Source: a virus. From it: a DNA stretch of 36,388 nucleotides. The notes under the pieces were generated by a model. It saw only the letters and a program-made list of their open reading frames with translations. It had not been told where the DNA came from and did not search any database. Position numbers and translations under genes: made by a program. The stretch is taken from UHGV virus genome UHGV-0085232. The stretch is one strand, 5' to 3'. Of this stretch, positions 240 through 36,388 are shown piece by piece; positions within the stretch are counted from its first letter, which is position 1; every line of letters begins with the position of its first letter.

Positions 240-260
240 AAATCGGAGCGCATATGATAC

Positions 261-301
261 AAAAAAATGAGGGAGCGTATTTAATTGTACACTCCCTTTT
301 T
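261..301. terminator. Probable bidirectional terminator after the endolysin
   Basis: GGGAGCGTA...TACACTCCC stem with an A-run before and a T-run after. Confidence 0.6.
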
Positions 302-34083: not shown

Positions 34084-34112
34084 TTGACTTTCCATGCGCT
34101 CTGTGTTATAAT
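34084..34112 (+). promoter_or_regulatory. Antisense sigmaA promoter in the early operon
   Basis: TTGACT-17-TATAAT with extended TG. Confidence 0.8.
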
Positions 34113-34118
34113 CAAGGT

Positions 34119-34176
34119 AAGTGGAACTCACCTCTTGTCCGTTGTCGTTGCGCATTTTTGACAACGGACTTTTTTT
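34119..34176 (+). ncRNA. Putative ~57-nt antisense sRNA
   Basis: Promoter, short single-stranded 5' part, perfect 10-bp stem GTCCGTTGTC/GACAACGGAC, then 7 T. Confidence 0.7.
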
Positions 34177-34429
34177 ATTCCCATTCCGGCACACATAATT
34201 CCTGTCCCGGATATATCGCGTAATCTTCCAGACTGTTCTTATTCGCGATAATCTGTACCGTGTGCCTGTAATCTATATTCTCCGGTGTGATTTTTTGCGC
34301 TATATCACACACCGTATCGCCGCAGCTTACAATGTACGTGTCGTACCCTGTCGGCTTGTCCCTTGTCCTCGAGCCTGCAATCAAGAGTGCTATCACTATG
34401 ACTGCGGCTATTGCTATGTATTTTTTCAT
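34175..34429 (-). CDS. TM-anchored LysM protein (YneA-like)
   Basis: N-terminal TM, then YIV..GDTV..IA...N......IYPGQ.L.VP. Confidence 0.8.
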   Translation of the reverse strand: MKKYIAIAAVIVIALLIAGSRTRDKPTGYDTYIVSCGDTVCDIAQKITPENIDYRHTVQIIANKNSLEDYAIYPGQELCVPEWE

Positions 34430-34463
34430 TGGTTGTCACCTCTTATTCCGCTATCTTCCTTTC

Positions 34464-34808
34464 TTACTCTGCTTTTTTAATCGGTATTATGTTCGGGCGT
34501 TCTTCCATTTCACCCTCCAGCGAATATTGCCCTTGCGTTTGCGCTGTCATCTCTATCAAACCGCTGTCTGACAAAAACAACGATGAATTTATCGGGAATG
34601 TAGGTTGTAAACTGCTCTTTACAACTGTTTGCATAACAATATGCTGCCTTGATTCATCGGGCAAAAGTTCCAGCGTGACCGTTATTTTTCTCTTTGCCCC
34701 TGCTTTGGTGTTGACATCGTTTATGTTTTCGACTACCTTTTGCAATTCATAGTTGATTCTCTCTGTTATAGCGCCCTGTGCACTATCAATTATACTTATC
34801 TCTTTCAT
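34464..34808 (-). CDS. Hypothetical early protein
   Basis: GAI.ER...EL.KV..NI.D.NT....KRKIT motif typical of phage early genes. Confidence 0.7.
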   Translation of the reverse strand: MKEISIIDSAQGAITERINYELQKVVENINDVNTKAGAKRKITVTLELLPDESRQHIVMQTVVKSSLQPTFPINSSLFLSDSGLIEMTAQTQGQYSLEGEMEERPNIIPIKKAE

Positions 34809-34820
34809 TGGTTTTCCTCC

Positions 34821-35036
34821 TTAACTCATGCTTGCCACATACCCGGCTAAGCTCCATAATGATACTTTGCCGGCTGATTCTTTGATTTTTTTTGCCTTTA
34901 ACAGCCGCCAAAACTGCTGATACGATATACCCAACACTTGCGCCGCCTCGGTTTTGCTTATTAACTCCGTAGCGATATTATGTTTTCTTTGCAGTATCTC
35001 ATAATAATCCCGTTGCCCGTATATTTCCCTCGGCAT
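34821..35036 (-). CDS. Excisionase-like HTH protein (71 aa)
   Basis: LISKTEAAQVLGISYQQFWRL; SD AAAGGAGG before ATG 35036. Confidence 0.7.
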   Translation of the reverse strand: MPREIYGQRDYYEILQRKHNIATELISKTEAAQVLGISYQQFWRLLKAKKIKESAGKVSLWSLAGYVASMS

Positions 35037-35143: not shown

Positions 35144-35314
35144 TTTGTTTCACCTCCAAATTTTTTTAACCCTTACAGGCGGTTGTTTGCGGCGACCGTC
35201 TGTTTCATTGTAGAACTGGACTTTAATTTCGCCGTCAATAACCAGTGTTACCGTGCCGCCGGCAAGCGAGCAGAGAGAGGTGAGTGTATATGATACACAC
35301 TAAATTGCAATTAC

Positions 35315-35343
35315 ATTGTATCATATGCACTCCGTTTTGTCAA
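35315..35343 (-). promoter_or_regulatory. Early (lytic) promoter
   Basis: TTGACA aaacggagtgcatatga TACAAT (17-bp spacer, extended TG). Confidence 0.85.
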
Positions 35344-35373
35344 ATATTTTTTGACGGAAAGGAGTATTTTTTT

Positions 35374-36388
35374 ATGAAATTAACAAAACGAAAGGACGGT
35401 AGATACTGCACGTCAAGAACAATTAACGGCGAAAGGGTGTTTTTTTACAGTTCCGAACAAACCGAAAAAAAGGCGGAGAAAGACATCGAAAATCAAATGC
35501 TTGCGTATACCGAAAAAAAAGAGGAAGGGAAATCTTTTAGGACAATCGCCGAAAATTGGGATAGCGAATACAGAAAACGCATTTCCGATATAAACTACCG
35601 CAAAAACACAAAAGCGGCTTATAAGCGCATTTTAGACTATTTTTCACCATACGGCGCTATAGATACAATTACATTGGTCGACATCAATCTGTTTTTAAGC
35701 CGTTTAATATCGCAGGGGTTTTACAAAAAAACGATAGCATGCCACAAATCTGTACTTGGTATGATTTTCCAATTTGCTGTTTTGCATGGGTTTTTACATA
35801 GCAATCCTATGTCGGATATTCGCTTGCCAAACAATCTTCCACGTTCCGAGCGGCAAATGCCGACAACGGACGATATAAGGGTTATAGATAGCCATTACGA
35901 GGGGTTTGATTTACTTCCTTATTTTTTGCTTTATACGGGATTGCGAAAATCCGAAGCGTTGGCATTATCTTATAAAGATATTGATTTTAAACGCAAAATA
36001 ATAACGGTAAATAAGCACCTTATCCACGATGGCAACAAGCCGATTATCGAGGACCGGACAAAAACTGTAAACAGCCGCCGAACCGTTGTGCTGTTGGATA
36101 GGTTGGCGGATAAACTGCCGCATAATAGGATTGGTTTGGTTTTTTGCAATGATGACGGCAGTCCTTTTACAAGCAAACAGTATGATTCCCAATGGTCAAA
36201 TTATCAAAAAAAATACGGTGTAAATATCACCGCACATCAATTGCGGCACGCATACGCTACAATGCTTTTTGAAGCAGGTGTGGATTTAAAAGATGCGCAA
36301 GACCTTATGGGGCACTCGGATATTAACCTTACACGGCAAATATATACGCATATTCGAGATGAGCGCAAATTAGAAACAACAAACAAAC
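35374..36388 (+). CDS. int: Tyrosine integrase (completed by bases 1-20)
   Basis: MKLTKRKDGRY arm-binding-type start; TGLRKSE, HQLRH, LMGH and IYTH catalytic motifs; SD AAGGAG. Confidence 0.95.
   Translation, partial: MKLTKRKDGRYCTSRTINGERVFFYSSEQTEKKAEKDIENQMLAYTEKKEEGKSFRTIAENWDSEYRKRISDINYRKNTKAAYKRILDYFSPYGAIDTITLVDINLFLSRLISQGFYKKTIACHKSVLGMIFQFAVLHGFLHSNPMSDIRLPNNLPRSERQMPTTDDIRVIDSHYEGFDLLPYFLLYTGLRKSEALALSYKDIDFKRKIITVNKHLIHDGNKPIIEDRTKTVNSRRTVVLLDRLADKLPHNRIGLVFCNDDGSPFTSKQYDSQWSNYQKKYGVNITAHQLRHAYATMLFEAGVDLKDAQDLMGHSDINLTRQIYTHIRDERKLETTNK

Follow-up and report, generated by a model that had tools for sequence, protein, structure and literature searches.

Organization of the Integrase Gene and the attP Region

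The DNA analysed here in full, hereafter called the window, is the UHGV-0085232 sequence of 36,388 nt, a complete tailed-phage genome with terminase, portal, capsid and tape measure genes. It represents a circle with the cut inside int: the tyrosine integrase gene, on the plus strand, starts with an ATG at 35374, runs to 36388 and continues through positions 1–20, where a TGA at 18–20 closes an ORF of 344 aa, the same length as in the homologues; the named relatives of this integrase come from uncultured gut Clostridia. The region 3′ of int contains, on the plus strand and in this order: two int-proximal arm-type repeats (23–43), recognised from the sequence and arranged in the same way in relatives; the att core (77–103), which is the 3′ end of a tRNA-Thr(CGT) gene, as indicated by its match to genome G568, and points to a G568-like host; a predicted terminator, T1 (110–162; hairpin of −20.6 kcal/mol and U-tract), which takes the place of the tRNA terminator; four ATAAC direct repeats with an exact 10-bp period (168–202); three int-distal arm-type repeats of 11 bp each (209–241), also recognised from the sequence; and, directly after them, the element CGGAGCGCATATGATACAA (244–262), which is followed by T2 (263–305), a bidirectional terminator of about −15 kcal/mol that ends the lysin gene. 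The ATAAC repeats, compared with the RDF site geometry outlined in PMC7498355, are candidate Xis/RDF sites and are separate from the element. The likely Xis is a 71-aa HTH_17-like protein encoded on the minus strand (34821–35036), whose homologues also occur in elements devoid of the attP copy. As a separate observation, T1 (110–152 in the window, and the corresponding stretch in relatives) includes a strongly conserved CCGCATAAA...TTTATGCGG found with many tRNA targets and in both core orientations; judged by sequence, this conservation exceeds the needs of a terminator alone.

A Motif Shared by attP and the int Leader

The initial annotation reported that 244–262 matches the reverse complement of 35316–35334, in the int leader, at 18 of 19 positions. 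This is correct, and the leader copy is the sole other match in the window at up to 3 mismatches; such a match is expected by chance 0.03 times, and two matches were found in none of 100 shuffled sequences. The third copy, at 35282–35297 on the plus strand, is likewise present and agrees with the leader copy at 15/16 positions and with the attP copy at 14/16. The proposed palindrome GTGYAT-atg-ATACA is perfect in the third copy only, and the attP copy, as read from the sequence, keeps three of the six arm pairs. The single mismatch between 244–262 and the leader copy falls inside the segment complementary to the Shine–Dalgarno sequence (anti-SD), and the attP element is predicted to be locally unstructured. 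An exact scan of viral contigs for the element gave 7 matches, and in no case could an att site or an int leader be made out around them.

An Antisense Promoter and Alternative Helices in the int Leader

The leader copy (35316–35334, plus strand; copy 2) has two roles, one on each strand. On the mRNA it carries the anti-SD CACUCC with a 5′ single-stranded toehold, and it was annotated as the anti-SD of int's own leader; in a predicted hairpin (35328–35365), CACUCC pairs with GGAGU and sequesters the SD at 35360–35365. On the minus strand it forms the spacer and the extended −10 of a sigma-A type promoter, TTGACA-17-(TG)TACAAT (35315–35343; 11/12 consensus positions). The same segment had been taken for an early or lytic promoter element; it belongs, rather, to a conserved promoter that reads antisense within the int leader. 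The third copy (35282–35297; copy 3) is the anti-anti-SD: it pairs with copy 2 in a covarying helix and is the target of a predicted antisense RNA. The terminator of this RNA survives by half in the window (35254–35279, minus strand), the other arm and the A-tract being missing at 35253/35254.

For the comparison of leaders, an alignment query retrieved 240 integrase loci, where a single-protein Int query of viral contigs had returned 0 matches; the set comprises 191 distinct leaders, 42 of which are at least 46% identical. An antisense sigma-A promoter just upstream of the start was found in 23 of these 42 close leaders and in 59 of the 191 overall, and a sense-strand promoter in only 1 and 3, respectively, with less than 1 in shuffled sequences. 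The A-tract and GC run that mark the antisense terminator accompany the promoter in 20 of the 23 promoter-bearing close leaders, and at locus L161 the terminator is intact (−20.3 kcal/mol). A promoter and a terminator on the opposite strand would thus delimit a short RNA over this leader, the terminator being shortened in the window.

Both the copy 3:copy 2 and the anti-SD:SD helices pair better within a leader than across leaders (0/20000 permutations each, the permutations ignoring relatedness). When copy 3 was held unpaired, which is the effect expected of an antisense RNA, the mean probability of an unpaired SD fell from 0.36 to 0.15, with a decrease in 15 and an increase in 1 of 23 leaders. 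The copy 3:copy 2 helix is the consensus fold of 17 close leaders; both partners have changed in 4 of its 14 pairs, and the covariation term is only −0.05. As modelled, the leader therefore contains mutually exclusive helices with covariation, one of which hides the SD. A covariance model built from a loose alignment had 0 base pairs and was left out of the results, and a strict leader pattern, too strict as designed, gave 0 matches in 5 genomes.

The same leader also precedes large serine recombinases and an unrelated tyrosine integrase, and hence is not an Int-specific site. The structured leader was found before large serine recombinases at L551 (G019; Pfam-checked), L540 (G654), L536 (G390), L554 (G695) and L550 (G696). 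Leaders of this antisense type are widespread among integrases, at the frequency given above, and lack an Rfam family: at the gathering threshold, the window, L161, L001 and L162 gave 0 Rfam matches, and only 10 sub-threshold ones. The leader may stand as an unnamed motif in the supplements of the RNA motif screens PMC8040213 and PMC5737381.

Two other arrangements were considered for this leader and discarded. Face-to-face promoters of the P2/186 kind would need a rightward promoter at the third copy, where TACACA is a poor −10 and the scan gave none. Autoregulation by Int through arm-like leader sites would require that these sites track the arms of their own element, and the scores of own and cross comparisons were not significantly different (6.07 and 6.13, respectively, 29 loci). 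The leaders of L098, L100 and L473 contain an exact reverse copy of their own arm repeat between the −35 and the SD; these three loci stand outside the 29-locus test, and among those 29 loci the arm-in-leader feature is not general.

A Missing cI Block to the Left of the Leader

A scan of 36 ORFs of the window revealed nothing resembling cI, and none lies between the 71-aa HTH gene and int. In a G568 prophage the same leader, at 91% identity, still has the terminator half that the window lacks and is preceded by 3.5 kb with cI (HTH_3 + S24), a ParE-family gene and hicA, and other relatives have cI/cro-like genes, as read from the translations, at the same place. Among the matches listed, contigs of all four runs (X1, X3, X5 and X8) differ from the window to the left of 35254, and three runs show there the end of hicA or an intact terminator arm; in one contig, 4117 letters foreign to the window separate 35054 from 35254. 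The window thus lacks about 3.5–4.1 kb at 35253/35254, the place of cI, cro and toxin-antitoxin genes in relatives. The leftward promoter at 35343–35315 is therefore not the native lytic promoter; that it faces the early genes in the window is due solely to the absence of about 4 kb with cI and half of the terminator. Judged by sequence comparison, the window appears to be a repressor-less deletion derivative with the antisense promoter pointing into the early lytic genes; the 35253/35254 junction is a candidate for a natural virulent deletion mutant or for an assembly chimera. Since the cI block was lost, the switch discussed below may be idle in this particular genome.

Further observations concern the early region itself. 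Among the matches listed, three of four runs carry a form of 34423–34803 that skips 379 nt and is devoid of a 114-aa early gene, and all four differ from the window at 34109, 34113 and 34114. At 34084–34175, a plus-strand promoter (TTGACT-17-TATAAT, 11/12) is followed by a hairpin and a T-tract; this short stand-alone unit is antisense to the early operon and adjoins the SD of a 75-aa gene.

Recurrence of the attP Copy in Relatives

Conservation of the copies was examined both with and without reference to the element. In an untargeted test of both ends on 16 loci with leader and att, an own copy was detected in the window and in L098 only (17 and 15, respectively, against a maximum of 12 in 240 cross pairs), the other 14 loci being no better than the cross pairs. 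An element-blind search with terminator and arms gave 33 sites in 18 genomes, reduced to 29 by dropping three in which int abuts the arm and one, which carries the element, outside the locus set. Of the 29 arms, 14 have the core motif in the 40 nt that follow the distal arm (controls: opposite strand 0, next 40 nt 0, shuffle mean 0.05), or in 8 of 29 with a stricter 17-nt score; several of the 14 are related remnants in the same genome, and so they are not 14 independent events. Thus, the expectation that the copies are conserved in related phages holds in that the attP copy recurs, but its distribution is clade-limited, with 14/29 unselected arms and 1/15 relatives in the untargeted test.

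When arm and element were combined in one pattern, a set of 164 genomes from a single host family yielded 17 sites, spread over 10 genomes (control 0), and a class-wide set of 401 genomes yielded 4 with the pattern. The same scan of viral contigs gave 12 matches, with an att layout in 1 of 8 inspected, and a scan with inverted arms gave 10 matches, 3 of them at att sites; among the lysin relatives (73 loci), the two inspected had no usable att ends. This recurrence at the arms of relatives, including inverted-core elements, overturned the idea that the attP copy is a scar specific to the window. As the initial annotation proposed, integration places the element at the far prophage end: this is seen in 7 relatives, and in the window the element lies on the distal side of the core. 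It has been kept even beside Xis repeats and arms that have diverged, at tRNA genes of at least 7 isotypes and in both core orientations, and it is degenerate at several host remnants, including the tRNA-Thr site of G568.

Such remnants are common in some hosts. In G568, G573, G390, G574 and G656, many tRNA genes are followed by a phage-type terminator and arm remnants (L394, L401, L405, L523, L528, L395, L402, L406 and others), and for most of these remnants the assembly yielded no integrase to match; G568 alone has at least 8 of them. L385 and L383 (G019), and L402 and L406 (G573), are apparent secondary-site integrations with split or partial tRNA cores, and the two in G573 abut serine-recombinase-like ORFs.

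The att Copy Follows Its Own Leader and the Direction of int

Leader and att copy could be matched in eight pairs, on the basis of a common core, a common contig or a split core; these are the window, two pairs in G008, and one each in G019, G568, G007, G224 and G695. Five of the seven relatives' pairs were matched across contigs by core sequence, and the six pairs beyond the untargeted test came from pattern searches aimed at the element. G693, whose leader is that of an element inserted at a different tRNA, and G656, whose contig ends before the junction, were left out. The att copies are more similar to their own leader than to mismatched ones (15.4 against 14.3 of 18; exact permutation p = 0.0024) and form stronger duplexes with it (−23.5 against −18.9 kcal/mol, p = 0.0001), though such tracking of own over cross can come from shared ancestry alone. 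They track copy 3 more weakly than copy 2 (p = 0.052). The G007 att copy, for example, has three letters in common with its own leader at which the window differs. Among the 11 differences within matched pairs, just 3, all of them among the 7 transitions, would still allow a G·U pair; with no such enrichment, wobble pairing provides no sign of RNA action.

In G007, G224 and G695, the core and the arms are inverted relative to int, and the copy still follows the far arm, in the sense of int. This orientation ties the element to the direction of int transcription, and not to the geometry of the intasome or to the tRNA promoter. A hairpin lies 3′ of the element in 7 of the 8 matched pairs. Action in trans of an RNA produced in the prophage by read-through from the tRNA gene was also considered; it would be possible with forward cores and fails for the three inverted-core cases.

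Proposed Pairing Across attP and Alternative Explanations

We suggest, at a probability of about one half, that 244–262 acts by positive 5′–3′ pairing of int mRNA across the intact attP, a reading that relies on sequence comparison and fold models. In intact phages, int would be read from the cI operon, and the pairing of copy 3 with copy 2 would leave the SD open. An antisense RNA of about 65 nt, by covering copy 3, would flip the leader to the SD-closed state and keep Int low in the lysogen. In the circular phage, the int transcript would read through attP and end at the 263–305 hairpin, and its attP tail would pair with its own leader, favouring int translation; integration would then separate the tail from the leader. 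Copy 2 lies outside the stretch covered by the antisense RNA, which the attP tail could therefore circumvent by way of the free UUGUAUCAUAU toehold.

This kind of RNA pairing was one of two models put forward by the initial annotation, and it has fared the better: it is favoured by the recurrence of the copy, by the likeness of each copy to its own leader and by an orientation that goes with int; against it stand T1, predicted to be strong, and the small SD release modelled in cis. In the dimer models, addition of the att RNA increased SD access in 8/8 cases, and shuffled att RNA (6 tested) did not, even if these folds force binding and the complementarity makes SD release partly automatic. 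When the whole circle transcript was folded, the element paired with copy 2 at a mean probability of 0.76; in cis, GGAGU opened only from 0.00–0.09 to 0.11–0.19. T1, between int and the element, is in this modelling the main obstacle to read-through for the orientation class of the window.

Among the alternatives, an unlikely one, which nonetheless survives best, is that the attP copy works as promoter DNA: having arisen by duplication of the antisense extended −10, it would direct transcription into the hairpin or hold RNA polymerase beside the arm sites. To judge from the sequence, the conserved core does double as an extended −10 consensus: its best-conserved part reads TRTG-n-TAYAA, 10 of 14 unselected matches end in the −10 T, the last arm repeat of the window reads TTGTCA 18 nt upstream, and −10-like sites are also found 3′ of the arms in two genomes devoid of the copy, G002 and G004. 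By contrast, the −10 T is absent in the window and in 5 of the 8 matched pairs (present in 3/8), the spacing from the arm ranges from 10 to 28 nt, and from a true TTGACA in the inverted elements from 14 to 23 nt; such a promoter would make little beyond a hairpin, and the tracking of leader spacer letters would be left unexplained.

It is rather less probable that one DNA-binding protein recognises both copies and links the antisense promoter to recombination, as Apl and Cox do. In the form given by the initial annotation, an operator shared by the lytic promoter and attP, this is unsupported, the promoter being that of the leader antisense RNA and no phage protein fitting the role, although a host factor may be the shared binder. 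The same columns vary in leader and att copies, the place beside the arm sites is fixed, Apl as described in PMC7498355 offers a precedent, and co-evolution with an element-encoded protein would also give tracking of own over cross. Set against this, no further copy with up to 3 mismatches was found in the window or in the examined stretches of G008, G007, G224 and G568, which included the cI/cro regions of G008, G007 and G568. With phmmer, which is insensitive for such short proteins, none of the 5 copy-bearing regions gave a homologue of the 75-aa RHH protein, and of 6 other regions one gave a weak match; the 71-aa HTH homologue occurred with and without the copy. Moreover, the 10-bp Xis-type repeats are apart from the element, the leader also serves a serine recombinase, arm-like leader sites do not track their own arms, and the orientation follows int and not the intasome.

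At a marginally lower probability, the RNA pairing could be real but negative, the 5′–3′ duplex being an RNase III substrate that destroys the read-through int mRNA, with the same sign as lambda sib. This would share the conservation evidence of positive pairing, and RNase III cuts both the icaR 5′–3′ UTR duplex (PMC3868564) and S. pyogenes int leaders (PMC5389636). However, the element covers the anti-SD and not the SD, whose access rises in every dimer model, and the duplex has at most about 19 bp, with mismatches. Finally, the copy could be an inverted duplication without function, its similarity maintained through common descent or through recombination between the conserved flanks of a swappable int-att cassette. 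This would agree with the absence of the copy in 14 of 15 relatives in the untargeted test, with its degeneration at host remnants, and with near-identical leaders on integrases only 45% identical, which indicate that flanks are exchanged, but it is the least probable of these readings, given the persistence of the copy beside diverged Xis repeats and arms, at 7 or more tRNA isotypes and in both core orientations.

Comparison with Known Systems

Positive pairing across attP would resemble lambda sib. In lambda, integration removes sib from int; here too, the element lies downstream of int and beyond the att core, is separated from int by integration, and would affect int only while attP is intact. 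However, sib folds locally at the 3′ side, is cleaved by RNase III and has a negative effect. The element is instead complementary to a 5′ leader 1.3 kb away, its predicted effect is positive, and the fold models gave no local 3′ RNase III structure lowering Int. Plasmid countertranscript control (pT181, ColE2/IncB types) also uses a strong antisense promoter in the leader. There, as predicted here, the antisense RNA flips alternative folds, but in our case the target is an integrase, and the override from the attP side has no known counterpart in those plasmids.

Downstream control by sib and its cleavage by RNase III are described in PMC5300877 and PMC5389636, and sib is also treated in PMC6379469. 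PMC5389636 reports antisense transcripts over the UTR upstream of the S. pyogenes prophage integrase genes int1/int3, a likeness to the antisense transcription predicted here over a Firmicutes prophage int leader; the difference is that the passage concerned assigns them no function and does not mention an attP-side copy or an SD switch. In Staphylococcus aureus icaR (PMC3868564), a 3′ UTR motif pairs with the 5′ region of the same mRNA and controls its translation. That motif pairs with the SD and represses, whereas our element would pair with the anti-SD, and recombination cuts its connection to the leader.

The occurrence of one motif at both att and promoter region recalls coliphage 186 Apl and P2 Cox. 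For Apl, PMC7498355 gives 5–7 short direct repeats with a 10–11-bp period at att and promoter; the shared motif here is instead single, inverted and of 17–19 bp, and periodic repeats occur at att only (ATAAC, 168–202), with no such array at the promoter. Nor do the copies lie at a lytic/lysogenic promoter pair, 0 being found in the cI/cro regions of G008, G007 and G568. Integrase expression is tied to att geometry also in KplE1, in which, according to PMC2951348, attL overlaps the int promoter and IntS represses it; here, by contrast, att is downstream of int, and the arm-like leader sites do not track their own arms. A literature search, in which most subscription papers were outside the scope, found no title or abstract opening describing a pairing between leader and attP. 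To judge from sequence and folds, the attP copy is real and conserved in its clade and would work like a retroregulation that depends on integration state, yet it conforms neither to sib nor to Apl/Cox.

Implications for Temperate Phages of Gut Clostridia

Temperate phages have to make Int once they have infected a cell and to keep its level low during lysogeny, which lambda achieves by CII and negative retroregulation. We tentatively propose, at somewhat less than even odds, that a family of phages and satellites of gut Clostridia sense their integration state by RNA alone, an antisense RNA closing the int leader and the 3′ tail from attP reopening it in the circle, as a positive, long-range retroregulation built on a portable leader common to tyrosine and serine recombinases. 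If true, this would be a protein-free coupling of Int synthesis to DNA topology, which would be usable as a sensor of recombination state.
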